Of a stretch of 64,000 nt of DNA, positions 31,983 through 57,198 are shown in pieces. The stretch spans positions 32,001 through 96,000 of the forward strand of contig CM000431.1 in NCBI GenBank assembly GCA_000165345.1. Direction: 5' to 3'. Below the pieces are notes generated by a model. The model saw only the letters and a list, made by a program, of their open reading frames with translations, was not told the DNA's origin and did no database searches. Every line of letters begins with the position of its first letter. Position 1 is the stretch's first letter. The position numbers and the translations under genes are program-made.

Positions 31983-34900
31983 TCATGAAGCAATATCAAT
32001 GAATTCTGAATTAATTTTGTCAAAGTATGTGGCAGACCTTGGAGGGGTTGGAGGTCTTTCGGAAAGAATGTTTTGGTCCCAATAATTACTATTGTTAAGA
32101 ATCATTCTTGGGTCCTTTGAAGCTGAAGGGAGCAAGATCTTTGGGACAACTGTTAAGTCTCTCTTAATAAATAGTAGAGCTCCCGCATTTTGATGCTTTC
32201 CACAATAATCAGTGGCAGAAAACAAAGTGATAAGCTTGCCACCAGCAAATCTCTCAAATCCGTCTTGTACACATTCGTGGGCTCTAATAATTAGATCCAG
32301 GTTATTTTCACATAGGAACTGGATAACTCTATCAGGACCGAACTTAACGATAAAACCACATCCATCAGGATCTCTGGTGTCATTAGGAACAATTCCCTCG
32401 AGTGAGTCATTATCAGTAGGATCAGACCATAAGAGATCAAGTATTCTCTGTTCATACTCAGTTTGTGGAGTTTGGGAAGGTCTTAATGGACGTTGAATTT
32501 CTTTAATTTGTTCGACTTTATGAATAGAGCCTCCAATTCCACCATGAATACATAATATTCTATCTTCAATAATAGCTCCAACAGGAAGATACTCAAAAAC
32601 ACGGTTAAACCAATTCCAACATGAATCAGGATCATCAGTATCTTCCCTCAACCTTCTCCTACATTCATCTTTAAAGCCATAAAGTGAATTAACAACAGGA
32701 TCTTCATGATTACCTCTAATTAAATGGATTTGTCTTGGGTATCGAATTTTCAATGCAAAAAGCAAACAAATAGTTTCCAAGCTATGACTACCTCTGTCTA
32801 CATAATCCCCCAAAAACAAGTAATCAGTGGAATCAATATCTCCTTTTGCTTCAAAAATATCTTCCAACTCTTCACTGATGGGAGCTTTATAATTATGAAA
32901 GAGTCTCATTAGGTCATAATACTGCCCATGTATATCTCCATAAACTTTAACAGGCGTTCTGAGTTTAAGGACCATATCCTCTTGTTTTACAATACTGAAG
33001 GCCATTTCACAAAGTTGTATGACTTCTGGCCAAGTAAGTGAGAATGCTGCCATATGATTAAATCTAGCGGAAAGTTCAACAGGGGTAATAGTTGGATGAA
33101 GAAATAACTTTAAGCATTTTTCTATTAATCCAGTACCTGGCACTCCCATTGAACTTGGAGTTAACATCCAAGGAGAATCTGCAAGTGCGTGCTTTGCTGC
33201 AACTTTGTCAATTTTCCTTCCTTCCTCTCCAAGTTGGTCAATCGAAACCTTCTGGACAAGCGTAGAAAAGTCATTGTTCATAGAGTCAACAGTAATATGA
33301 ACTCTAGAGCTGACTTTGGTCACAGCAGGAGTTAATCCAATTAATCCCGCAGTAGTCTTATATTCCATTTTGGGTATGTATCTCTTTGAGTCATTTTGCA
33401 GCTGAATATTCGCCCTAGCTATTGCTCTCTCAACATCGGTGAATGGAATATCATTTGATTTAGGGGAGTTATACTCCTGTACATTATTTTGCTCATTAGT
33501 GGTTGAAGAGCCGAGGTCTTCATTGGTTAGATCGCTTCTCGTTTTGTTGGGATCACCAGTTCCAAAAACTAATTGATCCTTTGGCTGAACTCCAATAGTG
33601 TTATATGGAACTCCAATAAGGCTCTTTCGTCTAATTGACCTTTCCTTTTCATTATAGAAGTTTGGCTCTGCAGAACAATCCATAGAAAGTAAATCAACAG
33701 TAGGATGAGTTTGGGTCTTGTGGTCAAATCCTGCAAAACTGAACAAAGTTGATTTTATTGCCCATGCCGAATGCCTAAACCTTTCAATACCAGGCAAATC
33801 TCTCCACTCACAATTTTCAGTGTCATAAAGCATACTTGGCAACACCTTTGAAACATCATCTCCTCTTCCTCCTAATGCTAACATTTTAGATCCAACAAAT
33901 AAAACAACGTGCTGAAATCTTTGGGCAGGAGGCCCTCCCTTTCTGCATGGGGCTTCTATCCAGTCCCATCTTCCATCTCTATGTTGCCTAAGACCCCATG
34001 TATCTCTTAAGCATCGTGAATCGCTTGCTCTCCCTCCATGTACAACTGTCATCCCCGCTGCTGGCCCCTCCGTACACAATGCAGCACTATGGTATACTCT
34101 TGGAAATGGCACTCTCTCATCTCTATCAAACAATACTTGCGTCCACACAAACGGGCTTTCTTCAACATTCATAAACCACACATCATTCAAAGTTCTCTGT
34201 CCATCATTTCCCCCAAATACTATCAAATTAGGTTTGCTGTAGACCATTATATGTCCATATCTTCTCCCAGGAGTCCTTCCTCCACATATTGGCACACTCA
34301 TCCAACCGTAGTGGGGATCCTTTCTTAGGTCCAGTAAATACAATTCGTCGCTGCTCAAGCTTCCACCGCCTATTGGATTTTAATTAAGTTTAAAAGAAAA
34401 GAAATCTTTGAGTTCAGACTTACCTGTAGCGCCTCCATATATAACAAGTTGCATTAAGTCTACACATGCTGACGCATGAGCTGCTCTTGCACTAGGGGGA
34501 TTATCTGCTGTAATCTTCTTCCATTGGAATCCTGCCGAAAAGTCCAGTATATATGTATCTGCTGTAATTGTATATCTTCCATTATCACCAATAGCTCCTC
34601 CAAACAACACAACTACGTATAGTTAAACATATTTGTAACTTATTTTTCCTTTTTTTTCCCAAAATCAACGCCCACTCTACATCTTTCTTACAGGTTTATT
34701 CACATGCAAATAATTTTTATTTTTTGTCCACATGAAATTGCAAAATTTTGGCAATAACAATAAAAATTAAATACCGGCATTTACATGCAATTTTGCGTAG
34801 TGTCAAATTATTAACGAAGGTTAAAGTCAGGTTGGGGGGCTGTTGTGATGATAGCGGCGTAGAAGCGAATGTGGCAAGCATGACGAACAATAGTGAAACA

Positions 34901-35741: not shown

Positions 35742-38700
35742 CTAATTACGTAGAAAATCATAAAAATCACAAAAATCTAAATAGTTTTTACCTGGTTTGC
35801 AGCATTCATTTAGAAAGATCTCGGTCCAGTGTATGTGAGCACAGTATTGGACAGAGTTGCTTTGATCAACTCCCAAGAAACGCTCATCTCTTTGCTGATC
35901 ATATGATTGAGAGTTCCCCAACTTGAGGTATTGTTCATATTGTTGGGGCGAAATAGTTTCTGAGCATAGAATGATGTCATCTTCCCATCCGAAAGAAGCA
36001 AGTATGTCTTGAACAGAGACCTTTCCATCTGAATCTTTATCAAAATTCCTGAAAACTGTTTTTAATGCGCTAGTATTATTTAGATACATTTCAGGCTCCA
36101 TTGAAGCAGCAATAAACTCAGAATATTCCCAGGATCCACTTTGATCTTGGTCTATGATACCAAAAATACCTTCTATTCTATTACAAAGCTCATTAAGTTT
36201 GATGATGTCGTCAATATTGAAGCTGCATAGAAACTTTAAAAGCTGGTCTTTATTGAACGTGCTTTGATTTGAAAGTGATTTCAAGTAGTCATCGATGGAC
36301 ATAGATTTGCGGTTTCCAATTTGATTGGAATGATTGAAAGCTCCTTTTTCTGGGCTTTCAATTGCAGAGCTTCGAAATCCTTCATCATAGATCTCATCAA
36401 AGTGGTCCTCTTCAATTTCACTGGCATTATCTATGTAATCTTCAAAACTAGGTTGATTGTTTGGGGAATTTGAAAGAGGAGGAAGAGAAGATGAACGAGA
36501 AGATGCAGATTGGAAGTTATCATTTGAAGTTTGTTTAGGGTGGCATTGCTTGTTCTTGTAATTGCTAGATGAAATCCTTTCAACGTGGAATATAAAACAA
36601 AGAACACATTGTAGTTCAGCAAGAGAAACTACACCATCTGCTGCAACATCAAACCTGTTGAATTGATCTCTGAGTTGATTAAATTCGCAGTTTTCTCCTA
36701 TTCGAAGAGCAATTGAAACTAAAATGACTCTTTTCAGAAGAGTATAGTTACAAAACCGTTCCCAAGATGATATCAGTTTAAGGAGAGGCTTGTAAGCGTT
36801 ACATGTCTTATTATAAATAACGCAGTGGAATAATTGTTCTTTATCGCATACTTTTGAGACGATATTTGGAATTGTAACGTTATTTATGACTGATATACGT
36901 TGACCATTTGCATTCTCGTCTGAATTCTCAAGATATTCATCTATATTTCCTTGTTTTAGATTATTATTTGTTAGTAAATTAGAAAAAGAAAGTGAGGACC
37001 TTGAAATACTGTATGACGTAGTGAATGTAGATGAAGAAGATGAAGAAGACGATATTGAATTGGGTATCGAAATTCCGGAGTAGCTTTTTGACCCATCACA
37101 ACTTCCATGATCTATTGAATTAATAGTAACGTTGCCTTGACAAATGTGATTAAGAACTATAGGGTTCCCACAATGGCAGCCAAAGTGAAATCTTGTATCT
37201 CCAGGAGGAGATAAAATGGAATCTTCTTGGTTTAATAAAGCATTGATAGTTGCTTTGGTTCGAGGAGTAGCTATTTGCTGATCTGTAATTTGAACTAAGC
37301 CAGGGTTATATATAGAACTATTTGGAATACTGGCAAGACTTGGATTAGCGTCTGTATTTGGATAAGCATTGTTCATTGAATAGAGAAGTGGAGTACTACA
37401 GGATCTTTTCAGCATTGAATTTCTATTCACGTTTCTAATTTGACTTCCAGTTGATAAACCATGAGATTCTAAGAACCCTATCATAGATCCTGCTACAGAT
37501 CCTTGCCCTGAGCTAGAGTCTAACCTTGGCGGAGCATTTACTATTTGTGTTTTGAAGAAACCTCCGGTTTCTGGAGAACTGGTAACAACTGGTGTATTAT
37601 CATCAGATCCTGATAAATTATTAAGATCTTCTTCAGAAAGAATATCATTTATTCGTTCTCGATTGGAATATAAACTTGGGGAAGAAATGCTGGATTTGAT
37701 CTTAAGACTACTAATGCCAGATGAAGCTCTGGACTTAGTAACCCTCATTCTCTGTTGATGCCATGGCCAAACAACAATCTTGTTAATCATTCCAATACCA
37801 CAAAGAGGAATGTTCGGCGTGTCCCAAGATCTAAGCCAAGGATGTTGTAATGCTTGGAATGCAGAAATCCTTTCTGATGGGTTCTTATTCAATAATTGAA
37901 GAAGAAAATCTTTGGCTTGAGTGGAGACTTGGCTCCAAATAGATTCTGAAAACGATACACTTCCTCTTCGAACTTTCTCAATGATTTCAGTATCAGTGTT
38001 TCCTGCAAATGGAGGCACTCCACATAATAGAATATGAGCCATTACACCAATTGACCAAATGTCACACTTATCATCATATCCTTTACCTAATAAAATTTCT
38101 GGAGCAATATAATATAATGTACCGACTCTGGTTCTAAGAGTTCCAGTTCTGGTAATTCTTTTTGCCAATCCAAAATCTATAAGTTTAAGAGGACTATTCA
38201 ACTCAAAACAATTACAGTTACATTCACACTCCTTCTCTTGATGGGAAGGTATTGGATATTTAATAGAAGAAGAATTGGAATTTGAAATAGAGTTAGATAC
38301 AGAACCCTTTTTCAAGTACATATTAGCAATAAAGTTTGGACTTCCAAATGGCTCAGAGTTAGGAATAGGTATATCTGTATGACTGAGTTCTCCATTGTTA
38401 GTTTCTTGATCATAACTTTCGTGCCTTTCTCCCACTTCTTTATCACGGTTTTTCTTACAAATCTCTGAATTTGAAGCAGAGAACAAGTGATTGGAAGTAA
38501 TATCACAAATGCCGTTATTGTTACTAGGAGTTATTGTGTTATCGTTGATATTATAGATTAGGGATTGGAGTTGTTGGTTGTTCATACTAGATGGTAAAGA
38601 TCTACAAATCCTAAATCTGTCTTGTTTCAAGTATTTGGATAGAGCAGCCTCTTCATCTTGGAATAACTGGCTACTTTTCTGTTCAAAAAGGCAGTGCTTG

Positions 38701-39284
38701 CAGTTAATATTGGACTTTGAGTGCAGAAACAAGAAGTTCTCAGGTTTAAGGTCTCTATGAACAATTCCCTTAGAGTGACAATAAGAAATTGCTGACAACA
38801 TTTGCTTAATTAAGTGGGCAGTTACTCTTTCTGAAAACCTTCCAACATGAGAAAGACGATCAAATAGCTCTCCTCCAGTGCAAAGCTCCATAATTAAGTA
38901 AATAGAGTTATAATCTTCAAAAGATTCGAATAACTTTGCGATATTTGGGTGATCTAAAATACTCAAAAGCTGCATTTCCTGTCTAAACCGGAAGATTTCA
39001 CCAGAAAATTGCTTCGGAATCTTCTTTGCTGCTCTGAGTATTCCTGAGCATCGCTCTTCCACAATATAAACTGCTCCCCAGCTCCCCTCTCCTACTTTCT
39101 CTCCCAGTTTATAATGGTTTTGAATTGGAAGGTAGCTGGTCCCCACAAATGAGTCTCTCTTAATTGGAGGTTTTGGTGTTTGGTTTGAGAGTCCAAATAC
39201 TGATGAATCTCTACTCAGCTTGCTTTCTGATGTTTCAACTTCTATATTATTTTTCGATTCCTCTCCATCCTTAATGCTCTGCAT
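35742..39284 (-). CDS. CDPK-like Ser/Thr kinase with C-terminal EF-hands, 1180 aa. It has atypical insertions in the kinase domain and the linker
   Basis: Kinase motifs: GEGSWGAVY, AAKKI, HRDLKPEN, DFGLAKR, GTLYYIAPE, DIWSIGV. About 190 aa are inserted between HRDLKPEN and DFG. About 550 aa of Ser/Asn-rich linker follow. EF-hand loops DVAADGVVSLAE, DQDQSGSWEYSE and DKDSDGKVSVQD are present, plus a degenerate fourth (KPGKNYLDFCDF). Confidence 0.8.
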   Translation of the reverse strand: MQSIKDGEESKNNIEVETSESKLSRDSSVFGLSNQTPKPPIKRDSFVGTSYLPIQNHYKLGEKVGEGSWGAVYIVEERCSGILRAAKKIPKQFSGEIFRFRQEMQLLSILDHPNIAKLFESFEDYNSIYLIMELCTGGELFDRLSHVGRFSERVTAHLIKQMLSAISYCHSKGIVHRDLKPENFLFLHSKSNINCKHCLFEQKSSQLFQDEEAALSKYLKQDRFRICRSLPSSMNNQQLQSLIYNINDNTITPSNNNGICDITSNHLFSASNSEICKKNRDKEVGERHESYDQETNNGELSHTDIPIPNSEPFGSPNFIANMYLKKGSVSNSISNSNSSSIKYPIPSHQEKECECNCNCFELNSPLKLIDFGLAKRITRTGTLRTRVGTLYYIAPEILLGKGYDDKCDIWSIGVMAHILLCGVPPFAGNTDTEIIEKVRRGSVSFSESIWSQVSTQAKDFLLQLLNKNPSERISAFQALQHPWLRSWDTPNIPLCGIGMINKIVVWPWHQQRMRVTKSRASSGISSLKIKSSISSPSLYSNRERINDILSEEDLNNLSGSDDNTPVVTSSPETGGFFKTQIVNAPPRLDSSSGQGSVAGSMIGFLESHGLSTGSQIRNVNRNSMLKRSCSTPLLYSMNNAYPNTDANPSLASIPNSSIYNPGLVQITDQQIATPRTKATINALLNQEDSILSPPGDTRFHFGCHCGNPIVLNHICQGNVTINSIDHGSCDGSKSYSGISIPNSISSSSSSSSTFTTSYSISRSSLSFSNLLTNNNLKQGNIDEYLENSDENANGQRISVINNVTIPNIVSKVCDKEQLFHCVIYNKTCNAYKPLLKLISSWERFCNYTLLKRVILVSIALRIGENCEFNQLRDQFNRFDVAADGVVSLAELQCVLCFIFHVERISSSNYKNKQCHPKQTSNDNFQSASSRSSSLPPLSNSPNNQPSFEDYIDNASEIEEDHFDEIYDEGFRSSAIESPEKGAFNHSNQIGNRKSMSIDDYLKSLSNQSTFNKDQLLKFLCSFNIDDIIKLNELCNRIEGIFGIIDQDQSGSWEYSEFIAASMEPEMYLNNTSALKTVFRNFDKDSDGKVSVQDILASFGWEDDIILCSETISPQQYEQYLKLGNSQSYDQQRDERFLGVDQSNSVQYCAHIHWTEIFLNECCKPGKNYLDFCDFYDFLRN

Positions 39285-40410: not shown

Positions 40411-43400
40411 ATGGGAACAAAATTAGTGAGTAATATTAAGAATTTCATTATATCTGGAAGAAATCAGAATGGTATTAAAGGGTTGGTTAAAGGTTCTTAT
40501 CCTAATGGATATAGGAATTTTGGTCCAGATCTAGACAGGATGATGCTACCACTAAACAAGAAATATGTAGACGAGAGTAAATTAGTGGATAGTATTAATG
40601 AAGAAATAAATAGTATTGGGGGTTGTAGTACAAGTGGAGGAGGAAAGGATAATTATTACCTTTCAGTATTGAAATGTCTGGTGGAATTTATACAATGGGA
40701 TATTAAAAAGGAAAGAGAGAATTACGCAAAGTATGGTATGTTTTTATTTTTGAAATTATTGGAAGGCTACAAAGATCATTGGGTTGATTCTATAAGGCTT
40801 ACAGCGTTTATTAGGAATCAGTCAGAGGCGTGGCTATCAAAGGACAGCGGCGCATTACAGTATTACGGAAAGTGGATAATATTAGGAAATATGAAGAGAA
40901 GTTTGGAAAAGAATAGTCATTTGTATTATAAAGAGTTCGAAGGTTTGAGTAATGATGGTGCCCATATAGTTTCTACAAATCCTAATATTGGACAAAAGTA
41001 TCCAGGATTATCTGCCAATTCTTTACCTATTAAAATGTGTACATTAAGCAATAAGTTGGTTGAAATGTTATGTAAATGCGTTATCAATATAAATAACAGA
41101 CTGGAAAGTAAGAATGGAAAAGAAAAATTAAAAGGATGCAAAAATAGTATAATTACTGAAGAACAAAGTTTAAAAGCAAATGAAGTCAGTAATAAGGATT
41201 TGATAGAAGTTACATTAATACTCGAGATTATATTGCTTGGATTCTTAATGGAAGGTGAAATATTTGGGGAGAAATCTGATGCTTTAATTTCTGAATTTGT
41301 AATACCATCTTTAGCATCTATAATAGATTCAAAGCTTATATTAAGTTATTGTCTATCCTTTCACAATGTAAAATATTATTTGAATGAAAATGGTCCAGGA
41401 AGGTCATTATATAATACGATGGAAATATTCAGAGAAGATAGTAATTTATTCTTTCAAGGAGATAAAGCAACTATAAATGAATTGATTGAGAGTTTATATA
41501 TGAGATTTTTATATTTAATTGAAACTTTGAGTATAATTTTTTTAAAAGAATTTCAAGAAGAAAAAGCAATGCAACAAAGATGTTCTGAAACAATATCTGG
41601 AAAAGTAACATCAGAAATTGAGGATGATTCAGTATCTCAGAGCACTTCATTAAATAATTTTAATAATAATATTAGCAATAATGAGTTGGGTTTAATTCAA
41701 AGATTTAAAGTACAGGATAGAATTAATATATTGCCATTAAAATTCAAGAGCCTAAATGATAAGTTATATTCATTATGTTATTATCCATACATATTAACAT
41801 CTGATATTTGCTTAAGTATATGTAGAGGAAATTCTGATTATACAGTGGAACTAATAACATTATTAACTTGCGCTTTAAGATATCATACAATAAATACAGG
41901 TTATTCAGAAGATTTTCAAAGATTATTTCAGAATACTGATCCATTATTTATAATAGATGAGTTAATGGTTTCAATTTCAGGAGGTAATGATGAGATTCCA
42001 AGATCAATATTGTATTACGAAACACCACAATATTGTTATAGTTTGTTACGTTGTTTACATAGGGTATTATGTTGTTGCCCAAGAATTGTTGGTATTTCAA
42101 GATTAGTTTCAACTTTGATTAATTTGATTGATGTAATATTACCACTTTATGACTTAAATGGTACATTATGTTCAAGATCAAAGAATTTTGATGGCCAGAT
42201 AAGTAATATAGGGAATAATAGGGGAGGTATGGCAGGAGGTGATATAGGCAAATGTGCATTATTAATGAGAAATGTGGCATTTCAGGTAGTGTTTGATATA
42301 ATGTGTATATTAAGTGATACATCTCAAGTATTCTATGTTATTAGAGTACTAGTTAAAGTTCGAGATTGGTGTGGATCATGCTTATTAGATTTAATAAGAA
42401 GGTGCCAAAGACTTGCATCACAAAGTAGTGAGATGGGGAATTTAAATAAAAGAAGTTTAAGTACCTATAATAGCCAATTAAAGAGCAATAATGTTGGTGG
42501 AGTAAATGGCTTGACAACAGCAGTAAATCAAAAGTATGATAAGTTGGATTTAAGGACAAGGGTTGGTGCAACAGGATTATTACAAACTTCAAATAAAAAG
42601 ATTAGTGAATTAGGTAATATTAATAATACTTCAGAAGGTTCAAAGCTAGTACAGAATTCAAGCTTGGTTGGAGGAATTAGTGGTAGTGTTGCATCATATA
42701 ATTCAGGAATTGATTTATCTTCTTATCTTAATATAGGAGGATTAAGAGAGTTTGATTTGGAAATAGTGAACCCATCGTTTTGGAGTGCATCAAAAATATT
42801 GGAGATTGCAGGTATAAATAGAAAATGGATAACAGGCCAAATTGGTAATTCAGGTAACAATTATATAAGTATGAATTTCACTGGTGGAGGGGCTGGTGGA
42901 GGTGGAATGATTAATGGTTTAAATGGAAATAATAGCAATAATATGTCAATAAGTAGTGGAATATCTTCTGGATTATCTAGTGATATAATAGTATCGTCAA
43001 AAACTACTCAGGTAATTTTCAACAGAAGCGAAAATATGGGAAGCAATAATAGTGGGAATTCTGGATTAGGAGGTGCATTGAGAACTGATGTAATAGGAGG
43101 ATCAACAAAATCTATTCCTTCCACTAACACTAATATTATTACTGCTACGACCAATGCTACTACTACTACTACTTCTGCTACTAATGCTGCTACTGTTGTC
43201 ACATCTTCTACAACAACTTCTTCACCTTCAGCAATAACAATAGGTGCAGGGAATATATCATCATCAGGTTCATCTAATTATGGAAGTATTTCATCACCAA
43301 AAGCAGTAGTTCTTCCTTCATCAAATTATTGTTATGATTACAGTAGTGAAGATGAGGAGAATGAAGATTATGATTTTGATGATATAGACACTAGTAGTGA

Positions 43401-43803
43401 TGAAGATAAAAGTATAGTAAATTTTAAAGGTAGTGAAAGAAGAAGAGGAGGTGGAAGGTATAAGTTTGGTGGAGGATATGCAGAAGAAGATAGGAGAAGA
43501 GAAGAAGAAGATGATGATAGCGAGAATAGTGGCGGTGAGGATGGTGATGATGATTACTGGGAAGCAGATCAGAAGTTACTAGAATTGATAAGACTTCGTC
43601 CAACCAGTTCAATAATAAATGCTCAGCCTCCAACCGCTGGAATACTTCGTAGGACTGTTTCATCAGATGTAAGTATAAGTAAAGGAACATTCTCAAAGAT
43701 AGGAAGTATATCATCATTATGGACAAAGCATAATTCTTCCCCTCCAAAAGCTTTATCTTCAATGAAAAGAGTATGTTTTGCTGAAGTGGCACAGATATAT
43801 TAA
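40411..43803 (+). CDS. Hypothetical protein, 1130 aa, with a Ser/Thr/Asn-rich and acidic C-terminal third
   Basis: Uninterrupted ATG ORF. The N-terminal ~650 aa has ordinary globular composition. The C-terminus has poly-Thr/Ser (TTTTTSATNAATVVTSSTTTSSPS), acidic stretches (DEDKS...EEDDDSENSGGEDGDDDYWE) and a Gly-rich run. No catalytic motif recognised. Confidence 0.65.
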   Translation: MGTKLVSNIKNFIISGRNQNGIKGLVKGSYPNGYRNFGPDLDRMMLPLNKKYVDESKLVDSINEEINSIGGCSTSGGGKDNYYLSVLKCLVEFIQWDIKKERENYAKYGMFLFLKLLEGYKDHWVDSIRLTAFIRNQSEAWLSKDSGALQYYGKWIILGNMKRSLEKNSHLYYKEFEGLSNDGAHIVSTNPNIGQKYPGLSANSLPIKMCTLSNKLVEMLCKCVININNRLESKNGKEKLKGCKNSIITEEQSLKANEVSNKDLIEVTLILEIILLGFLMEGEIFGEKSDALISEFVIPSLASIIDSKLILSYCLSFHNVKYYLNENGPGRSLYNTMEIFREDSNLFFQGDKATINELIESLYMRFLYLIETLSIIFLKEFQEEKAMQQRCSETISGKVTSEIEDDSVSQSTSLNNFNNNISNNELGLIQRFKVQDRINILPLKFKSLNDKLYSLCYYPYILTSDICLSICRGNSDYTVELITLLTCALRYHTINTGYSEDFQRLFQNTDPLFIIDELMVSISGGNDEIPRSILYYETPQYCYSLLRCLHRVLCCCPRIVGISRLVSTLINLIDVILPLYDLNGTLCSRSKNFDGQISNIGNNRGGMAGGDIGKCALLMRNVAFQVVFDIMCILSDTSQVFYVIRVLVKVRDWCGSCLLDLIRRCQRLASQSSEMGNLNKRSLSTYNSQLKSNNVGGVNGLTTAVNQKYDKLDLRTRVGATGLLQTSNKKISELGNINNTSEGSKLVQNSSLVGGISGSVASYNSGIDLSSYLNIGGLREFDLEIVNPSFWSASKILEIAGINRKWITGQIGNSGNNYISMNFTGGGAGGGGMINGLNGNNSNNMSISSGISSGLSSDIIVSSKTTQVIFNRSENMGSNNSGNSGLGGALRTDVIGGSTKSIPSTNTNIITATTNATTTTTSATNAATVVTSSTTTSSPSAITIGAGNISSSGSSNYGSISSPKAVVLPSSNYCYDYSSEDEENEDYDFDDIDTSSDEDKSIVNFKGSERRRGGGRYKFGGGYAEEDRRREEEDDDSENSGGEDGDDDYWEADQKLLELIRLRPTSSIINAQPPTAGILRRTVSSDVSISKGTFSKIGSISSLWTKHNSSPPKALSSMKRVCFAEVAQIY

Positions 43804-44893: not shown

Positions 44894-47800
44894 ATGTTTG
44901 CTAATCAGGATGATTTTTGGACTTCAGATGAGGAGGAGGAAGAAGAGGAGGGGGTAGAAGAGGAGGGGGTAGAAGAGGAGGAGGTAGAAGGAGAAGAAGA
45001 TAAGGATGAAGAAAAGAATGATCAAAAAAATGATTTGGATATGGTTGAAGAAAAAGTTTCCAGAATCAGTCTAAAAGAGGGTAAGGAAGGAGAGGAGAAT
45101 GGTGAGGAAGAGGAAAGAAAGAAAAAGAAGGGATTTATCAGGAAGAAATGGAGTATAGAAGATGAGCGAGATGTTTCTGATTTCAGGGAAATTATAGGCT
45201 ATGAGCCTTGTAAGAAAGAAGATTTGGATGATTCAGAAGATTTGGAGAATGTGGTATTAAAATATCCCTATGAATTGGATGATTTTCAGAAAAGAGCAGT
45301 AATTAATATACATAATGGAGACCATGTTTTAGTTGCAGCTCACACTTCAGCAGGAAAAACAGCAGTAGCAGAATATGCAATAGAGTTAGCTAATAAGAAT
45401 GGAAGGAAAGCAATATATACATCTCCTATTAAAGCTTTAAGTAGTCAAAAATATCGAGAATTTTTGAATAGATTTAGAGAATATCCTGCACATTCATCAT
45501 TTACTCAAAGAAACAGGATTGGAATAATTACAGGAGATGTGAGTATTAATCCTGATGCACAATGTGTAATAATGACAACTGAGATTTTGAGGACAATGCT
45601 ATATAGAAATGATCCTTGTATTGAACAAATTCAGACGGTAATATTTGATGAGGTTCATTATATTAATGATTTGGAGAGAGGCGTTGTTTGGGAAGAGGTA
45701 TTGATATTATTGGATCCAAAAGTTCAACTGGTTTTGTTATCGGCAACAATTCCAAATTATATAGAGTTTGCTAATTGGATTGGAAGGATTAAACAAAATA
45801 CTGTTTATTGCATTCGAACTTTACATAGGCCTGTTCCTTTGAAGCATTATCTTTACATTTACGAGAAATGTTTCCAAATAATGGATGAGAATAATAAGTT
45901 CAATATAAATGGATACAAGGAAATGCTGGATTTTATTAAAACTTCAAAATCTAAGAAGAGTATTAGTAGCTTAAAAAGCAAGGTCAGTAAGCTCAGTTCG
46001 TCAATATCTAAGGCGAACTCATCTCAAGAAATTCAGTCTCAGGAAGACCCAAATCAAGAGGATCCCAGTCAAGAAGACCCAAATCAAGAGGATCCCAGTC
46101 AAGAAGATCCAACCCAGGAAGTTCAGTCCCAAGAAGAACCAATCCAAGAAGACCAATCCCAAGAAACTCAATCCCAAGAAACTCAATCCCAAGAAATCCA
46201 ATCCCAAGAAGCGAAAGTTGAAGACAACAATATTGCAATGCTTAGGATCTCAGCAATTAACAAGCAAATCTCATCTTCTGCTGGAGCAAAAGGAGGATCT
46301 GGGGGAATTCTTTCTAGTGCAGAAACCAAATTCAAGACTGAAGTTTATAGATTACAAGTGTTCTTAAAGCTCTTGGAGAAAAATGATCAATTACCTGTCA
46401 TACTATTTGGATTTTCTAGGAGAAAAGTGGAACAATTAGCAACCAATTTACCAAATCTCAACTTTTTATACAATCATAATGAAAAAAGTAATATTATTAC
46501 ATTTATTAAAGAATCCACAAGTAAATTAAATGAATTGGATCAAAAAATTCCTCAATTATTACAATGTAAAGAATTAGCTTTAAGAGGAATAGGAATTCAT
46601 CATAGTGGAATGCTTCCAATTATCAAAGAAATGACTGAGATCTTATTTACTAGAGGATTAATCAAAGTATTATTTGCAACTGAGACAATATCTATGGGAA
46701 TTAATTGTCCAGCTAGATCTATTGTATTTACTAGTATTAAAAAATATGATGGACGAAAAAATAGAATACTTCTTTCTTCTGAATATACACAAATGTCAGG
46801 AAGAGCTGGAAGAAGAGGTATTGATACTTTTGGTAATGTATTTATATTTAATTCATCACATGAAACAATACCAGAATGTATTGATATTGTAAAGATGATG
46901 CTTAATACTTATTTACCAGTACAAAGTAAATTCAGATTAACATATCAGATGATACTTCAACTTTCTTGTAGACATTCACTTAAAATTGAAGATATGATGA
47001 CTAAATCATTTAAAGAAATGTTCAGATCAATTAATCTTCCAATATTTCATCGAAATTTGAATAGAAAGCTTAAAAGACATCAAATCATACTTTCAAAATT
47101 ACATTCTATATTAGAATCATATAATAGTAATTTGGTTATTTCTAATTATAATCAAAGAAATACAAATCAAAAAGATGAATTTCAATTTGAATCTGATTCT
47201 GAATCTTTATTAAATATTATTAATGGTTTAATTTCAACTATTGAAACTTCAAATTTAATTTCTGGTCAATTATTTCAAAAACTATGTAATTCATCAATTA
47301 ATAAGAATATAATTTCTCAGAAGATTCTTAATCCTGGAAGATTAATACTATTCAATTCTTTTTCATTGACTGGTAAATCTTTACCAATGTTTGCAAATAT
47401 TTTGGAATATAATCCAACATCAACACTTTCTTCTATTATTGTTTATTCACAAGAATTTATTGATTTTCAATTTTCATCAAATAATTATCTTTCAAAAAAT
47501 ATTATGGATGGTAATGATAATAATAATAATAATAATAATAATAAAGGAATTGGTGATTCTAATAATGATATTCAATTTTATGATGTTGTTGAAGAAAGTA
47601 TTCAAAATTATCAAAATTCTAATAAGAATCGACAAATCAGTGTAGTACAAAACTTGATAGATCTTGATAGATCTAAAAAGAATAATAATCAAAGAAATTC
47701 TTCTTCATCGTATTCTTCAAAAAACTCTACAACAATCAATTTGATTCATCATTCAACATTTAATTCTCAGAAATTATTAATTTCAACATCTTTATATAAT

Positions 47801-49213
47801 AATACAAATATTAATGAAATCAATCCATTATTTAAAAACATTAATAATTATTATATTTTTCAAAATGTTCCATTAGAACTTTTTATGTTCATTTTTGATT
47901 TTAATGCTTCAGCTACAAATAATCAAACAAATCTTCTTAAAAGTATTAATTTTAAAGATATTTCCATATTACATAACATTGCAATTTTACTTAAAAACTC
48001 TGTTCAAGACTTTTTATCAAATCAGAATAGTATAAATAATATGAATGGTAATTGTAATAATTCTTTAAAAAATAATAATTTAGGAAATTCTGGTATAAAT
48101 CCTAATATTGGTCCAAAACCAAAGAATAAGAACAATAAAAAAGGTATGAAGGTAAATCTTTTTGAATTCATTAGTCATCAAGAACAACAAAACCAACAAT
48201 TAAATACTAATCGTGGAAATATTACTGAATATTCTTCATCTTCATCTTCAAACATACCAGAAAACTGGCCAAAATTATTACCCATTTCCAAAACACTAAA
48301 ATCAATAGAAATTGAATATTATGAACTTTTACAAAGATATAATGATCTTTTCCCAGAATTTGTTAATAATCATATATTCAAAAATTGTTATTCATTTATT
48401 ATTGAAGAAAATAATAATCATAATGATAATAATGGTAATAATACTATGATTCAACTTATTGTTGAACTTAATAAATTGGATCATGAAATATCAATTTATA
48501 AACATTTCATAAATGATGAAAGTTTGGATGATTATCCAGAAATGAAACTTAAAATACAATTATTAATTGAAAAAGGATTCCTTAATGAAAATCTTACTAT
48601 TACAACTAAAGGTAGAATAGCATCAGAATTACTTACAAGTGATGAACTTACTTTAATAGAAATATTACTGAATGGTATGTTACATAAATTAAATAATATT
48701 CATGAAATTACGGCTATATTATCTTGCTTTGTATTTCCTGAAAAAATGGAATCATTATCAAATTCAAATACTAGTACAAATAATAATAATAATAATAATA
48801 ATATTCTTGGTATAGATAGACCTTCATTACCTTCTGTTGAACTTTTGAATGCTCATGATGAGCTTATTAATATTCATACAGATTATGAAAAAACTCATTA
48901 TAAACATCAAATAAATTTAGATACTGAACATTTTTGGTCTTTATGTAATGATAAATTTATGTTAATTGCTTATAAATGGTCAAATAAAGAATCACTTAAA
49001 GAGATTATGGAATTTGTACATAATTCTGAAATGAATTTACATGAAGGTACAATTGTTAGAACAATTTTAAGACTTGATGAACTTGTTAGAAAACTTATAA
49101 TAGCAGCAAAAATGATGGGAGATAAAATACTTGAAGAAAAATTATGTTTAATACATGAAAATATTGCCAGAGATATCATTTTTATGACTTCTCTTTACTT
49201 TAATTCCAACTAG
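44894..49213 (+). CDS. Ski2-like (Ski2/Mtr4 family) DExH-box RNA helicase with a C-terminal DSHCT domain, 1439 aa
   Basis: Motif I AHTSAGKT. TSPIKALSSQK. DEVHYINDLERGVVWEEV (DEVH box). LLSATIPN. Helicase C motifs (LFATETISMGINCPARSIVF, QMSGRAGRRGID). The C-terminus has the DSHCT pattern (HEGTIVRTILRLDELVRKLIIAAKMMGDKILEEKLCLIHENIARDIIFMTSLYF). An acidic N-terminus precedes the core. Confidence 0.85.
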   Translation: MFANQDDFWTSDEEEEEEEGVEEEGVEEEEVEGEEDKDEEKNDQKNDLDMVEEKVSRISLKEGKEGEENGEEEERKKKKGFIRKKWSIEDERDVSDFREIIGYEPCKKEDLDDSEDLENVVLKYPYELDDFQKRAVINIHNGDHVLVAAHTSAGKTAVAEYAIELANKNGRKAIYTSPIKALSSQKYREFLNRFREYPAHSSFTQRNRIGIITGDVSINPDAQCVIMTTEILRTMLYRNDPCIEQIQTVIFDEVHYINDLERGVVWEEVLILLDPKVQLVLLSATIPNYIEFANWIGRIKQNTVYCIRTLHRPVPLKHYLYIYEKCFQIMDENNKFNINGYKEMLDFIKTSKSKKSISSLKSKVSKLSSSISKANSSQEIQSQEDPNQEDPSQEDPNQEDPSQEDPTQEVQSQEEPIQEDQSQETQSQETQSQEIQSQEAKVEDNNIAMLRISAINKQISSSAGAKGGSGGILSSAETKFKTEVYRLQVFLKLLEKNDQLPVILFGFSRRKVEQLATNLPNLNFLYNHNEKSNIITFIKESTSKLNELDQKIPQLLQCKELALRGIGIHHSGMLPIIKEMTEILFTRGLIKVLFATETISMGINCPARSIVFTSIKKYDGRKNRILLSSEYTQMSGRAGRRGIDTFGNVFIFNSSHETIPECIDIVKMMLNTYLPVQSKFRLTYQMILQLSCRHSLKIEDMMTKSFKEMFRSINLPIFHRNLNRKLKRHQIILSKLHSILESYNSNLVISNYNQRNTNQKDEFQFESDSESLLNIINGLISTIETSNLISGQLFQKLCNSSINKNIISQKILNPGRLILFNSFSLTGKSLPMFANILEYNPTSTLSSIIVYSQEFIDFQFSSNNYLSKNIMDGNDNNNNNNNNKGIGDSNNDIQFYDVVEESIQNYQNSNKNRQISVVQNLIDLDRSKKNNNQRNSSSSYSSKNSTTINLIHHSTFNSQKLLISTSLYNNTNINEINPLFKNINNYYIFQNVPLELFMFIFDFNASATNNQTNLLKSINFKDISILHNIAILLKNSVQDFLSNQNSINNMNGNCNNSLKNNNLGNSGINPNIGPKPKNKNNKKGMKVNLFEFISHQEQQNQQLNTNRGNITEYSSSSSSNIPENWPKLLPISKTLKSIEIEYYELLQRYNDLFPEFVNNHIFKNCYSFIIEENNNHNDNNGNNTMIQLIVELNKLDHEISIYKHFINDESLDDYPEMKLKIQLLIEKGFLNENLTITTKGRIASELLTSDELTLIEILLNGMLHKLNNIHEITAILSCFVFPEKMESLSNSNTSTNNNNNNNNILGIDRPSLPSVELLNAHDELINIHTDYEKTHYKHQINLDTEHFWSLCNDKFMLIAYKWSNKESLKEIMEFVHNSEMNLHEGTIVRTILRLDELVRKLIIAAKMMGDKILEEKLCLIHENIARDIIFMTSLYFNSN
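46021..46212 (+). repeat. In-frame 30-nt/15-nt tandem repeat encoding (S/N/T)QEDP and SQE(T/I)Q peptide repeats, located between the two RecA domains of the helicase
   Basis: caagaggatcccagtcaagaagacccaaat occurs twice, followed by degenerate aatcccaagaaactc units. Protein: QEDPNQEDPSQEDPNQEDPSQEDPTQEVQSQEEPIQEDQSQETQSQETQSQEIQSQE. It produces spurious antisense ORFs 46008..46238 and 46019..46207. Confidence 0.85.
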
Positions 49214-50450: not shown

Positions 50451-52326
<1,876 letters not shown>

Positions 52327-52826
52327 NNNNNNNNNNNNNNNNNNNNNNNNNNNNNNNNNNNNNNNNNNNNNNNNNNNNNNNNNNNNNNNNNNNNNNNNNN
52401 NNNNNNNNNNNNNNNNNNNNNNNNNNNNNNNNNNNNNNNNNNNNNNNNNNNNNNNNNNNNNNNNNNNNNNNNNNNNNNNNNNNNNNNNNNNNNNNNNNNN
52501 NNNNNNNNNNNNNNNNNNNNNNNNNNNNNNNNNNNNNNNNNNNNNNNNNNNNNNNNNNNNNNNNNNNNNNNNNNNNNNNNNNNNNNNNNNNNNNNNNNNN
52601 NNNNNNNNNNNNNNNNNNNNNNNNNNNNNNNNNNNNNNNNNNNNNNNNNNNNNNNNNNNNNNNNNNNNNNNNNNNNNNNNNNNNNNNNNNNNNNNNNNNN
52701 NNNNNNNNNNNNNNNNNNNNNNNNNNNNNNNNNNNNNNNNNNNNNNNNNNNNNNNNNNNNNNNNNNNNNNNNNNNNNNNNNNNNNNNNNNNNNNNNNNNN
52801 NNNNNNNNNNNNNNNNNNNNNNNNNN
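52327..52826. other. Assembly gap (500 N)
   Basis: An uninterrupted run of n of conventional scaffold-gap length. The true size is unknown. Confidence 0.99.
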
Positions 52827-54267
52827 CAAATGTATGATAGTATTTTTCAAAATATTCTTGTATTATATCATTAATATTATATTCTTGTAATATATTACCA
52901 AATAATTTATTTTTGCTCTGATTTAATATATTTTCCAAAGCAGAAAAATTATAATTCATTATTTTTGATTTAATATTCTCCAAATCAATAAAACTATAAT
53001 TAGAAGTTTGTGTATCATTTACTAATACATTTGTTCTCATATCATACCAACTACAATTTATAGGAAACCATGGTAAAATATTCAAGTTACCTTGTGATTC
53101 AATATAATTTTCTATATAAACTTGTCTCTTAAACCATCTATTTTCGAATATCTTAAAAAACTTTTTAGGAAATATTCTTGTAATGAATTCATATATTTCT
53201 GTATCATATTGAGATAGTATCGAAATTATTTGAGCATATAATATACAATTATCAACATTTGCATGCTCAAGATTATTAATAAATCCCTCATTTATAATTC
53301 TTGCCAAATATATTAATAAAACTCTGCTACTTTTAATCTTATTATTGATTAATTGATATTGACTCTCAGTTGAATCTAATAGTAATGATCTTAAAATAAT
53401 TCCACTCAAAAAGTCAACTTTTGGGATTGATGTTATCGATAGGTCGAACAAAAGATCTAAATAATTTCCACATAAGATTTCAATTGAAACATTTTTTAGT
53501 ACCTTATCTGTCAAATATCTTTGAAAATGTAAGATATTTGAATAAATCTTAAGTATTAAGGTGGTTAATAGTATTGATGAATTCTCATTATATTTTTCTT
53601 GTTTTATAGAAGATGAAATATCAAATACCTTATTTTGATCAAATAATTGTGTAAGATACATATTCTTATGTTGAAATAAAGATTTCCATAATTTGCTAAG
53701 TGCTTTTTCATCATCTTCTTCCGATAAACATCTTCTTAAAGAAATACTTTGAGAAATTTTATCATTACTTTGATTTTTCATTAATTCCAATATTGCTTCT
53801 AAAATTTGACATCTCAATTGAATACCAAGTAAATTAGAACTTGCTATATTTATCATAACTCCAAATATATTTGGAAACTCTCTTGAAAGTAATCCTCTGT
53901 AATAATTACACTTGGAAACTTGAAAAATAAAATTTGATGTAATTGTTAGACACTCCTCTATCTCAAGTCTTAACTCATTCATTAAGAACCTTGGGTCTTC
54001 TTTTTTCATTCTAAATTCTGATATTTCTAGTCTTTTATTTGCAACATTCAAGAACTCATTCACCAATTTAACAGAAAGTAAACTTTTTCTGTTACTGTAA
54101 GTTCCAGAATTTTCTTCTATTTCGTTCATATAATCACTCAAAAAGTTCAATAATACTACATCTTTCATTGAAATTAATACTTCTTTACTCAATTTTCTTC
54201 TATTTTCTGATTCACTCTTTAACTTTCTTATTTTTGAAGCAACCAAACTTAAATTTAACTCTTTCAT
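52827..54267 (-). CDS. Hypothetical protein, N-terminal at least 480 aa; the 3' part is lost in the gap
   Basis: ATG at 54267. The open frame runs to the gap edge at 52827. Helical, Leu/Ile/Asn-rich sequence with no catalytic motif recognised. The track ORF 52318..54267 includes translated Ns. Confidence 0.55.
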
Positions 54268-54869: not shown

Positions 54870-56346
54870 CTAATTCTTAGGATTGTTACTAGAGTTATGG
54901 TGGTAATTGTTGCCTGCTTGCCTGTTGGAATTCTTATTATTGAACTTTGAAGAATTTTGTGAAAAGTTCTGGCCCTGAGGCTGATTAATTTGCTTCCACT
55001 TTTCAATAGAGATTTCCATACCTCCAAGGTAAAGGCCATTATTTAAAAGGGTTTTGCAAGAAAACTCTGAATCCAATTCAATAATACCCCAATGCCTACC
55101 ACTAACTCTGGCTCTCTCAATATCAATTACATATCCTCCTCCATGTACCTTAAGTTGGTTCAAAACAGCCTCTCTGATCTGATCATCAGATATATTAGTA
55201 GGAAGTGAGTGCACAAAGATTTTGCGCTTATTTTTTGCTTCCTTTAGAGATTTTGGATCTTTTTGAGTACTTGTTTTTTTTGTCGAACCATTTTGAGATG
55301 CTGTCTTATTCTTATCCTCAGTTGGAACGTGGATTGCATACCCCTTAACCTTATTTCCATTCTTCAATGCTCCCCCCATAAGCTTTCCTGCATAGCTCGT
55401 GACTTCATATTTATGGGGATTAGAACGGTTAATATTAGCGTTATTCTTTGCATTAAGTGAATCAGTATAGTTTACTGGATCCAAAGGTGAAGGAGATGAT
55501 GCCGATGAAGTATTAGCAGCAGCATTATTGGATGTTGTATTAGGAGCGGAAGTACTAGCATTATTACTACTATTATTACTAGTATTAGCAGCAGTAGAAC
55601 TGGAAACCTTTTTCTGAGATTCAGCATTGGAATCAGTATTTGCATGGGCACCCACTGTTGCCACTGATTGACTTTTATTATCATCATCCTCTTTGGGTCC
55701 AGTGGCATGTTTATTAACTTCCTTGTTATGTTCATCATTGCATTGTACCTTACTTGAATGATGTTGTTCTTTCTGGGATTTATTAGTCTCAAAACCCGAG
55801 TCATGAGATTTTTTCCCACTATTCTTAGCTACTCCAGAATCATTATTTGCAATTTTAGCTGTATTCTGAACGCTTTGTTTAAGTGGTAACTCAGAATCAA
55901 TAAATATGAGGCAATCGTTCCTAATAAAATACCACCTTGGGCGAATTTCAGTTAAAAGGAAGTTTTGAACAAAACTTTTTCCAACACTCTCTCCCTCCCC
56001 AATATACATTCTTCCTTTAGCTGTAATGCACAAAGAATTATTGATGGATTTTGAGCATTCAAGCACCTCAACATAAGTTGTACAGTTACTTAAGTCTAAA
56101 AGATTTATTGCAGAACGAATCTTTTCTTTTGTCTCTGCTCTAATTGCAGATTGTGGGTTAAAAGAGCTATCCATAACTTCAGAACGATTCCCCACCCATG
56201 TTAAATATCCAGAGTCGTGATAAAGTTCATATAGGGTTGAGGGGTCCTTCTTCAGACGACTGTAGAACTCTGTTACAAAAAAGTCTGCAATCTTTGATGC
56301 ATTGCAAGTACTGCTATTATTTGTACCTTCTGTCATACTCAGAACT
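54870..56346 (-). CDS. G3BP-like RNA-binding protein (NTF2-like domain + RRM + Asn-rich tail), about 492 aa from the ATG at 56346
   Basis: NTF2-like N-terminus (KIADFFVTEFYSRLKKDPSTLYELYHDSGYLTWVG...FVQNFLLTEIRPRWYFIRNDCLIFID). Acidic and S/T/N-rich middle. C-terminal RRM-like fold (RKIFVHSLPTNISDDQIREAVLNQLKVHGGGYVIDIE...). The Asn-rich tail resembles an RGG region. The track start at 56354 is a TTG; the first ATG is MTEGTNN. Confidence 0.65.
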
Positions 56347-57198
56347 TGTCTCAATTAATTTTGTATTTGAGATTTATAATAAATTATATTGCTTACCAAC
56401 CTTATTGGTATTCTTTAAAGAAAATGTGACTCCTCATTCTTTACCGATTATTTTAATATAGACGTGAAAAAATTTAATAACTTATGCTTAAATATTATTT
56501 ATATATATTTTAATATTTAATAAATATATATTCATGGCGGCACACAATATTCTCTTTTTAATAAATAAATATTTAATTTTTCCATACATTTTCCCTCCAA
56601 ATAATGTTTATTTTCTTTATTTATTCTTAAATAATTTAAGTTCGTTTAATGCGATCCTTTCTTTTCTAATTAAAGCTTGATTAATCATTTTTAATAGACT
56701 TTTTGTTGAAACATGAAAAAAAAGTTGTAATCTTAATACATTTAGTGTACTAACTACAGTACTAATTCAAATTTCTTGGCTCACACACTTCAAATCCATT
56801 TTTTTCTACTATGTGGGTTAAATATAATTTCCAAAGTTGCTTTAATTCTATATGGATTTTAGTAAACTTGGAGGAAAAAAAAAATATTTAGTCCAATATA
56901 CATCCTTAAACCTATTACTGATTTAGAACGGCTTATAATACACAATATGGAAACTAACCATTTAATTCATATACTTAGAAAGAGAAATTCAAAGAAATGA
57001 TTAAATCTTTAAAGGAAAAAGAGCTATTATTTTTATTTTGAGTAGTAAATTAGAAAAATAAAAAAACAAATGATTTCTTTATTAAAATAAAAATATCATT
57101 TATATATTTTTGCTAAGCTCCATTTGCTATTTTATATTAAGATTAATTATAGTTTTTAGTACCGGTATTGCAATTTTCAATTTTTATTTTTATTTTTT

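Follow-up and report, generated by a model that had tools for sequence, protein, structure and literature searches.

A Cryptosporidium calcium-dependent protein kinase, cgd3_260, with conserved catalytic and EF-hand cores spread apart by long, mostly predicted-disordered inserts

How far can the catalytic and calcium-sensing modules of a calcium-dependent protein kinase (CDPK) be pulled apart by inserted sequence, and is the inserted sequence protein at all? The question is raised by a locus in a 64,000-nucleotide stretch of DNA (positions 32,001 to 96,000 of contig CM000431.1, assembly GCA_000165345.1), which we refer to as the window and number from its first letter. An original prediction, made from the letters of the window, had placed at 35742..39284 an uninterrupted CDPK-like reading frame with one large insertion inside the kinase domain and a longer one ahead of the EF hands. 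The frame is indeed there, as a single uninterrupted open reading frame (ORF) of 1180 aa on the minus strand, in DNA of ~30-37% GC. Its product matches C. parvum Iowa II EAZ51204.1 / CPATCC_000995 at 100% identity, and this match, together with the orthologue locus tags CHM_3g260 and cmbei_300260, therefore identifies the ORF as cgd3_260 on chromosome 3.

The core of the finding, namely the gene and its kinase insert, was already published in 2011. In 'The Cryptosporidium parvum Kinome', Artz et al. (2011; PMC3227725) listed cgd3_260 as a previously unidentified CDPK, gave its architecture in Table 1 as KD----EF.EF with a kinase domain of 426 aa and a full length of 1180 aa (both lengths agree with the present ORF), and counted it among the eight C. 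parvum CDPKs with intact EF hands; the assays in that study covered CpCDPK1-4 only, not cgd3_260. The other literature mention of the gene concerns its promoter, reported to be weak and chosen elsewhere as a low-expression driver, and we found no functional study of cgd3_260 in the literature under any identifier. What is added here to the published record is the sequence evidence for translation of the inserts, the retained junction helix, the first EF hand (EF1) and the EF1-EF2 and EF3-EF4 inserts, and further the invariant linker islands, the disorder prediction, a Leu849 substitution, a Met gatekeeper and possible relatives outside the genus. All of these are incremental: disordered inserts have enlarged other apicomplexan kinases too, and cgd3_260 is an extreme instance of this ordinary pattern.

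Taken as a whole, the analysis makes it likely that cgd3_260 is a non-canonical CDPK, active and probably Ca2+-responsive, whose disordered inserts loop out and have regulatory or docking roles. Four lineage-specific segments, of ~170 aa (in the turn between strands beta7 and beta8), ~340 aa, ~130 aa and ~40 aa, occupy surface loops or hinges; they are mostly predicted to be disordered and contain short islands that are invariant across the genus. Throughout, 'invariant' refers to a genus-wide protein alignment of the cgd3_260 clade, that is, Cryptosporidium orthologues out to C. muris, and means invariant across 11 species; a wider alignment joins this clade to 40 canonical CDPKs. The map below also draws on an AlphaFold2 model, with its predicted local distance difference test score (pLDDT), on ratios of nonsynonymous to synonymous substitution rates (dN/dS) and on alignments to Protein Data Bank (PDB) structures; CAD denotes the EF-hand activation domain.

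35742..39284, minus strand: complete intronless coding sequence of cgd3_260, 1180 aa plus a stop codon at 35742-35744 (single ORF, 100% match)
39114..39284, minus strand: N-terminal region, aa 1-57 (alignment, AlphaFold2)
38727..39113, minus strand: N-terminal part of the kinase domain, aa 58-186 (Pfam Pkinase, 4.1e-70; PDB alignments with CpCDPK2 and PfCDPK2; motifs; pLDDT 88-96)
38202..38726, minus strand: insert 1, aa 187-361, in the beta7-beta8 turn from the catalytic loop to DFG (spacing, variability)
37827..38201, minus strand: C-terminal part of the kinase domain, aa 362-486 (Pfam, PDB alignments, motifs, pLDDT 84-96)
37749..37826, minus strand: post-kinase Trp-rich motif, aa 487-512, WDTPNIPLCGIGMINKIVVWPWHQQR (genus alignment, dN = 0)
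36852..37748, minus strand: kinase-to-CAD linker, aa 513-811, Ser/Asn-rich and mostly predicted disordered (stop statistics, dN/dS, pLDDT)
37344..37421, minus strand: linker island 1, aa 622-647, NSMLKRSCSTPLLYSMNNAYPNTDAN (genus alignment, dN/dS <=0.02)
37167..37268, minus strand: linker island 2, aa 673-706, TPRTKATINALLNQEDSILSPPGDTRFHFGCHCG, with H700/C703/C705 (genus alignment, dN/dS <=0.03)
36585..36851, minus strand: pre-CAD segment, junction/CH1-like helix and EF1, aa 812-900 (collinear with full-length CDPKs, pLDDT 72-87)
36234..36584, minus strand: insert 2, aa 901-1017, separating EF1 from EF2; rich in Ser, Asn and acidic residues and predicted disordered (loop spacing, variability)
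35916..36233, minus strand: EF2, EF3 and the invariant helical extension 1098-1123, aa 1018-1123 (Pfam, alignment)
35853..35915, minus strand: variable core of insert 3, aa 1124-1144, between EF3 and EF4 (loop spacing, variability, pLDDT <50 for 1123-1140)
35745..35852, minus strand: degenerate EF4, aa 1145-1180, loop 1160-1171, ECCKPGKNYLDF (loop sequence, AlphaFold2 helices)

By its sequence, the protein has a catalytically complete kinase core of the CaMK group, closest to the CDPK2 lineage. Pfam recovers the kinase domain in two stretches, 58-190 and ~363-486 (E = 4.1e-70), and the best PDB matches are all apicomplexan CDPKs: CpCDPK2 (2qg5/3f3z), PfCDPK2 (4mvf), CpCDPK3 and TgCDPK3/1. The catalytic motifs, comprising the glycine-rich GEGSWGAV at 65-72 (GxGxxG), K87, E103, HRDLKPEN at 176-183 with N183, DFG at 370-372 and APE at 394-396, are intact and invariant in the cgd3_260 clade, and the activation segment reads DFGLAKRITRTGTLRTRVGTLYYIAPE. 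At the gatekeeper position cgd3_260 has Met132, in register with Gly128 of TgCDPK1. Ahead of the kinase, residues 1-37 are variable and predicted to be disordered (pLDDT <50), and there is hardly any variation in residues 30-57 (FGLSNQTPKPPIKRDSFVGTSYLPIQNH).

Between the catalytic loop and DFG the predicted ~190-aa insertion was confirmed, with 186 residues from N183 to D370 against a median of 15 among 170 kinase domains of retrieved homologues; a clearly interpretable larger spacing was found only in the cgd3_260 clade and in one further sequence, P0026 (spacing 80). The site corresponds in CpCDPK2 to the 7-residue turn 'TDSPDSP' between beta7 (FLFL) and beta8 (LKLIDFG). Insert 1 is 15% Ser and 13% Asn, carries the CECNCNC cluster at aa 353-359, varies from a spacing of 109 (C. 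muris) to 186 (C. parvum) across the genus, and is hypervariable except for the invariant C195, S229, S232, C357, C359 and F360.

Beyond the kinase, cgd3_260 has a junction/CH1-like helix and an activation domain of four EF hands, both of which align collinearly with canonical CDPKs. The helix at ~826-870 (WERFCNYTLLKRVILVSIAL) aligns with the canonical FRRFxxxSRLKKxALTxIAQ and runs straight into the EF-hand domain, with helices modelled at 827-862 (pLDDT 77-87). A query of the junction alone against the PDB returned only weak calmodulin EF-hand matches, and the register was set with the TgCDPK1 junction instead: 35 residues separate the junction Phe from the first EF-loop Asp in both proteins (F844-D879 here, F333-D368 in TgCDPK1). 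When the variable segments are removed, the resulting mini-protein can be aligned in one piece, from the kinase via the junction to the EF hands, over its residues 4-471 to PfCDPK4 (4rgj) and 11-459 to TgCDPK3 (3hzt), and likewise in a single stretch to 4m97 and 4ysj. This register and the collinear alignment therefore indicate that the junction is retained, not replaced. What is displaced is its position: canonical CDPKs have a short gap-free junction after the kinase (ten-sequence excerpt of the wider alignment), with ~25 residues from HPW to FRRF, whereas 358 residues run from HPW483 to W841 here. The original prediction had the junction replaced by ~550 aa; 561 aa do lie between the kinase end and the first canonical-looking EF loop, but the retained helix and EF1 (879-890) are inside that interval, and the true linker is ~340 aa (487-825; 20% Ser, 11% Asn).

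The activation domain comprises four helix-loop-helix units in the AlphaFold2 model, and Pfam places EF-hand_7 at 1036-1096 and EF-hand_6 at 1074-1095, both past the cut-offs. In EF1 (loop 879-890, DVAADGVVSLAE) ligand position 3 is Ala; EF2 (1045-1056, DQDQSGSWEYSE) keeps all ligand positions and has Trp at position 8; and EF3 (1082-1093, DKDSDGKVSVQD) is the sole PROSITE PS00018 match among the four loops. EF4 (1160-1171) has no Ca2+ ligands, but keeps the helix-loop-helix shape (helices 1149-1161 and 1171-1179; pLDDT 71-90 for 1151-1180) and is nearly invariant. Of the prediction of three good loops and a degenerate fourth, the last part holds, while 'good' is generous for the other three, of which one passes the PROSITE pattern and one lacks a ligand residue. 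All four loops are essentially invariant in the 11 species, and the EF2/EF3 block almost fully so (pLDDT 76-91 for 1021-1100 and 55-60 for 1101-1120).

Loop-start spacing locates two more inserts. EF2 and EF3 are 37 residues apart, which is normal; EF1 and EF2 are 166 apart against ~36 normally, giving an insert of ~130 aa that the original prediction overlooked; and EF3 and EF4 are 78 apart against ~34-37 normally, giving ~40 aa. An EF3-EF4 insertion had been proposed at ~55 aa; it is present, though shorter by loop spacing, and about half of the extra residues (1098-1123) are invariant and predicted to be helical, leaving only 1124-1144 variable. Insert 2 varies in both length and sequence across the genus, with pLDDT <50 for 911-998.

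By every sequence-level measure available, the inserts are translated protein under relaxed purifying selection, not introns. In AT-rich insert DNA, where 7-20 stops are expected per frame, insert 1 has none in frame, while its two alternative frames contain 5 and 27 (~12 expected; P(no stop) = 3e-6), linker 513-811 none against 21 and 27 (P = 1e-9), and insert 2 none against 3 and 17 (P = 5e-4). Full-length orthologues of 1052-1225 aa from C. hominis, C. meleagridis, C. tyzzeri, the chipmunk genotype I, C. ubiquitum, C. canis, C. felis, C. ryanae, C. xiaoi, C. muris and C. serpentis (n = 11) are each encoded by one ORF, with the frame kept and lengths that vary. The ORF is intact in 7/7 species at the DNA level; all 16 gap runs are whole codons, 13 of them inside inserts 1 and 2. 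The retrieved genome annotations all call a single product of ~1180 aa.

Pairwise dN/dS against C. parvum was taken from this seven-species codon alignment, which includes C. hominis, C. meleagridis, the chipmunk genotype I, C. ubiquitum and the sequence P0004. Ratios are 0.07-0.28 for the inserts overall (insert 1 0.07-0.23, linker 0.12-0.15, insert 2 0.13-0.27) and <=0.03 for the kinase cores (N-terminal part <=0.02, C-terminal part <=0.03); the junction/EF1 block is at <=0.04 against each of the five named comparators, and the EF2-EF3 block is likewise at <=0.04. Equality of dN and dS was rejected for insert 1 (p ~5e-7 to 1e-6), for the linker minus its islands (5e-9 to 5e-22), for insert 2 (p = 2e-6 to 9e-6) and, in the comparison with C. 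meleagridis, even for the stretch of insert 1 where disorder is strongest (p = 2e-4).

The linker is not uniformly low-complexity: it carries three stretches (487-512, 623-647 and 673-706) that vary little or not at all within the genus. The Trp-rich motif at 487-512 has dN = 0 in 6/6 pairwise comparisons and is covered by a predicted helix at 494-524 (pLDDT 60-71). Island 1 is invariant at S623, S628-Y635 and N639-N643, and its core, LKRSCSTPLLYSMNNAYPN, is so out to C. muris, within a stretch predicted to be disordered (pLDDT <50). Island 2, invariant at T673-T679, P693, P694, R698-C703, C705 and G706, reads TPRTKATINALLNQE…RFHFGCHCG, again out to C. muris; here AlphaFold2 predicts a helix at 674-684 and a strand at 707-711 alongside another at 807-811 (pLDDT 51-72).

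Cysteines form a separate regularity of the alignment. An unusually large number are invariant across the 11 species (C79, C135, C169, C195, C357, C359, C407, C495, C629, C703, C705, C813, C845, C893, C896, C1020, C1034, C1107, C1148, C1161 and C1162), including a Cys-Cys pair inside the dead EF4 loop, and several sit within otherwise variable segments.

How such a protein might fold was addressed with an AlphaFold2 model of full-length cgd3_260, built on a 51-sequence alignment in which the insert regions are covered by 11 sequences. The predicted template-modelling score is 0.61; 10-residue blocks reach pLDDT 77-96 in the kinase core and 72-91 for most ordered junction/EF blocks, and values fall below 50 at 1-37, 246-355, 522-670, 714-802, 911-998 and 1123-1140, with helices of low to intermediate confidence at 198-247, the start of insert 1. 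In Foldseek comparisons, the kinase plus CAD matched Ca2+-bound TgCDPK1 (3hx4) at a TM score of 0.85, an Eimeria CDPK (4ysj) at 0.87 and 3q5i at 0.82 (target-normalised), and the kinase alone matched CpCDPK2 (2qg5) at 0.89. In the model, then, an ordinary CDPK assembly of the kinase and EF cores is compatible with inserts that loop out. The proposal that insert 1 alters activation-loop geometry finds no support in this picture: the insert lies in the beta7-beta8 turn upstream of DFG, is mostly predicted to be disordered, and is attached to a predicted kinase core that superposes on that of CpCDPK2.

On the reading we prefer, the inserts would loop out and leave the kinase and EF-hand modules to fold and to dock in the usual CDPK manner, and the enzyme would be active and probably Ca2+-responsive through EF2 and EF3, judged from their sequences to give one complete site per lobe. 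The autoinhibitory helix would act in cis on a long flexible tether of ~340 residues. Autoinhibition in TgCDPK1 uses the triad Lys338-Glu135-Asp138. In cgd3_260 the acidic members are kept as E139/D142 (within GGELFD, corresponding to TgCDPK1 E135/D138; D142 is Asn in the C. muris lineage), and in the ungapped register the Lys338 position is occupied by an invariant Leu849, with K851 and R852 at +2 and +3; autoinhibition, if present, would thus be built differently from that of TgCDPK1. The conserved islands, namely the Trp-rich 487-512, the LKRSCSTP sequence, the HFGCHC motif and the Cys pair at each end of insert 1, might by analogy with the disordered spacer of SRPK1 add a second layer of control or localisation. 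Altered autoinhibition, which the original prediction had derived from the insertions, is plausible on other grounds: the long tether, Leu849 and one complete Ca2+ site per EF lobe.

Several points weigh against this reading. EF1 is without its position-3 ligand and EF4 without any; since Leu849 takes the place of Lys338, autoinhibition of the canonical kind may be absent; the activated-like pose is an AlphaFold2 default and uninformative on regulation; the 'disorder' of the inserts could partly reflect the shallow alignment of 11 sequences; the readings of short motifs as a phosphosite, a 14-3-3 site or a Cys clasp are pattern-based; and the promoter is reportedly weak.

Some of these observations would also fit a Ca2+-independent kinase, in which the EF module is a constitutive structural partner, as in plant CDPK-related kinases (CRK), and regulation passes only through the inserts, by phosphorylation or partner binding. 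CRKs have EF hands that are all degenerate and unable to bind Ca2+. In this direction point the single loop of four that passes PS00018, with Ala in EF1 and a ligand-free EF4; the Leu in place of the triad Lys; a ~340-aa tether that would lower the effective concentration of the autoinhibitory helix; the activated arrangement in which AlphaFold2 puts the CAD; and the constitutive activity proposed for CpCDPK4, another insert-bearing Cryptosporidium CDPK (PMC3227725). However, EF2 and EF3 keep every ligand position, which sets cgd3_260 apart from CRKs, and they are invariant across the genus together with the junction helix, as a working sensor would be. PfCDPK2 is also without a basic residue at the triad position (Glu at F+5, with Lys-Lys at +7/+8, comparable to the Lys-Arg here), so that the triad is not universal among CDPKs and the Leu849 substitution is not diagnostic; and the conformation chosen by AlphaFold2 says nothing about regulation. 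We regard Ca2+ independence as rather unlikely, while giving it serious weight.

The invariant islands invite readings of their own. R-S-x-S-x-P is the 14-3-3 mode-1 consensus, and island 1 contains such a string as well as L625-x-R627-x-x-S630; the L-x-R-x-x-S core is also that of Syntide-2, the CaMK/CDPK substrate used in PMC3227725. By its pattern, island 1 (LKRSCSTP) is a candidate phospho-switch on the tether, resembling a basophilic-kinase and 14-3-3 site. For insert 1 a parallel is the SRPK1 spacer, which lies between the catalytic loop and DLG (the DFG-equivalent motif), the same site as insert 1. That spacer has been described as large and mostly disordered, splitting a bipartite kinase core, practically needless for catalysis and controlling localisation via partner binding; the same SRPK1 paper found that Cys in and around it affect activity and proposed that they hold the loop closed. 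In SRPK1 / Sky1p the spacer is drawn as a loop outside the folded kinase, to which we liken insert 1. Unlike cgd3_260, SRPKs are CMGC-group kinases that lack EF hands and show constitutive activity, and their spacer has no sequence similarity to that of cgd3_260; a CMGC core specific for RS dipeptides is not what we find, the best matches being all CaMK/CDPK. The likeness is confined to the disordered spacer and bears on how the insert may work, not on family membership.

In a broader combination of these elements, which we think improbable, the insert islands would form a second, Ca2+-independent control system in an unrecognised ancient apicomplexan CDPK subfamily. L625-K-R-S-C-S630-T-P may serve as a cis-autophosphorylation and 14-3-3-type switch that gates the reach of the helix to the kinase; metal or redox clasps may pair C195/C198 with C357/C359 and H700/C703/C705 with C813; and the subfamily design may consist of a FEDY/GTLYY kinase, a long tether and H-x-C-x-C, with TgCDPK10, Cardiosporidium and gregarine proteins among its members.

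The idea of a clasp may also be taken singly, with insert 1 as a regulatory module in which C195-K-H-C198 and C353-x-C-x-C357-x-C359 bind zinc or form disulfides, closing the loop beside DFG and making activity metal- or redox-sensitive. C195, C357 and C359 are invariant across the genus though they flank a hypervariable segment, CpCDPK4 has a zinc finger inside its kinase domain (PMC3227725), and in SRPK1 activity reportedly depends on Cys within and beside the spacer, which have been proposed to keep the loop shut. Yet invariance is limited to these three Cys, with C198 and the cluster's first two Cys absent from C. ryanae and C. xiaoi; AlphaFold2 confidence is low at both ends of insert 1 (~41-49); and no zinc-finger Pfam family was detected in cgd3_260. 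This version is, to our mind, a shade more doubtful still.

That the insert regions are unannotated introns and the real protein a compact canonical CDPK is scarcely tenable: nothing positive speaks for it beyond a gene reported to be weakly transcribed, and against it stand inserts open in frame beside other frames full of stops, one ORF kept by 11 orthologues of differing length, gaps of whole codons among seven species, dN/dS significantly below 1 in every insert, invariant peptide islands within the linker and annotations with one ~1180-aa product.

Where, then, does this kinase belong? The best core matches are to the CDPK2 lineage (CpCDPK2 cgd7_1840, 2qg5/3f3z; PfCDPK2, 4mvf; TgCDPK2), at E = 7e-82 and ~53% identity over 235 columns, and the order kinase-junction-EF1-4 is the same. 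CDPK2s differ from cgd3_260 in that their N-terminus bears a CBM20 domain (PF00686, matches P0028-P0047), to which cgd3_260 has no Pfam match at E up to 1; in addition, only 15 residues separate HRDxxxxN from DFG in CDPK2s, and their junction immediately follows the kinase. In a neighbour-joining tree the cgd3_260 clade is sister to the CDPK2 group on a long branch, with kinase-core identity of at least 81% within the genus and ~57% to the nearest outsider.

The linker itself is, on the searches made, restricted to Cryptosporidium. When 1.84 billion representative proteins were searched exhaustively by HMMER, aa 487-870 recovered only C. felis-type and C. muris-type orthologue clusters, apart from two marginal multi-stretch matches that look low-complexity, and local single-sequence and profile searches with the islands and the Trp-rich motif found nothing outside the genus. 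An apparent homology of the linker of P0061 to islands 1 and 2, as aligned by MAFFT, was rejected when phmmer and profile searches gave no significant match.

Resemblance at the level of design extends further. Six sequences share it: P0025-P0027 (Logan assemblies), P0061 (Cardiosporidium cionae IE077_000215) and P0049 and P0056 (gregarine transcripts). Like cgd3_260, they have kinase-to-CAD linkers of ~110-350 aa, as read from BLAST match positions and the sequences, and at least P0025-P0027 and P0061 also show an insert between EF1 and EF2; their linker sequences are not detectably homologous to that of cgd3_260. In the beta7-beta8 turn, where cgd3_260 has insert 1, P0026 (1405 aa; P0025 and P0027 have 844 and 875 aa) carries 65 additional residues rich in Ser and Pro, and it shares with P0061 an H-x-C-x-C-like motif in the linker. 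Of the four signature motifs FEDY, DFGLAKR, VGTLYY and GW[AE]D (the last after EF3), three occur in P0025-P0027 and two in P0049, P0056 and P0061; across the 120 retrieved homologues FEDY, VGTLYY and GW[AE]D are each found in 13-17 and DFGL[AS]K[RH] in 40. Kinase-core identity to cgd3_260 is 53-57% for P0025-P0027 and P0049. In neighbour-joining bootstraps the sister group of Cryptosporidium was drawn solely from these six in 115/200 replicates, and all 17 sequences formed one clade in 87/200. Together these features weakly suggest relatives of cgd3_260 outside the genus, and a wider unrecognised 'long-tether' CDPK subfamily is possible.

TgCDPK10 of Toxoplasma gondii (TGME49_240390, formerly TGME49_040390), which we compared by description only, has a similar outline, KD-----------EF.EF, with a 562-aa kinase domain in 2483 aa. 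It is listed next to cgd3_260 in the kinome table (PMC3227725), and is described with 3 EF hands; Neospora is the only other genus in which an orthologue is said to be known, though a protein from Sarcocystis groups with it. If the link of cgd3_260 to TgCDPK10 and the gregarine proteins is true, the published genus-restricted view of cgd3_260 needs revision.

To our knowledge, CDPKs are absent from mammals, and CpCDPK1 is a leading anti-cryptosporidial target; every CDPK family member is therefore of some interest. Bumped-kinase inhibitors are ineffective against bulky gatekeepers (PMC3227725), and with Met132 at that position the small-gatekeeper inhibitors of this class are therefore not expected to hit cgd3_260. 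With this gatekeeper and a weak promoter, its practical value is modest. It offers instead a natural example of a kinase-plus-sensor module stretched by disordered insertions while the cores remain very strongly constrained, and its invariant islands are concrete sites for mutagenesis.

Other features of the window were noted alongside. Directly downstream of cgd3_260 and on the same strand, 31983-34358 (minus) encodes a Kelch-repeat (PF24681, 5.5e-37) and calcineurin-like phosphoesterase (PF00149, 3.3e-36) protein, apparently a PPKL/BSU1-type 'plant-like' phosphatase adjoining a 'plant-like' kinase. Two long ORFs are without any Pfam match, at 40411-43803 (plus, 1130 aa) and 14248-20061 (minus, 1937 aa); the former is divergent from cgd3_260 across a 1.1-kb intergenic region and has a C-terminal half rich in Gly/Ser/Asn/Thr. 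The other neighbours look like ordinary housekeeping-type genes, comprising a DEAD/Helicase_C/DSHCT helicase at 44894-49213 (plus), read as Ski2/Mtr4-like, an NTF2-domain protein at 54870-56354 (minus) and a large RCC1-repeat protein at 57618-63254 (plus). A region of 8-11% GC at 51-53 kb was considered as an unusual feature and rejected, as it consists of a 500-nt run of N at 52327-52826, an assembly gap, beside extremely AT-rich DNA (flanks 50500-53000) with many (ATT)n runs, which on the minus strand would read as poly-Asn. The ORFs 50451..52850 and 52318..54267, both on the minus strand, run into this gap, and the gene models there are therefore unreliable.

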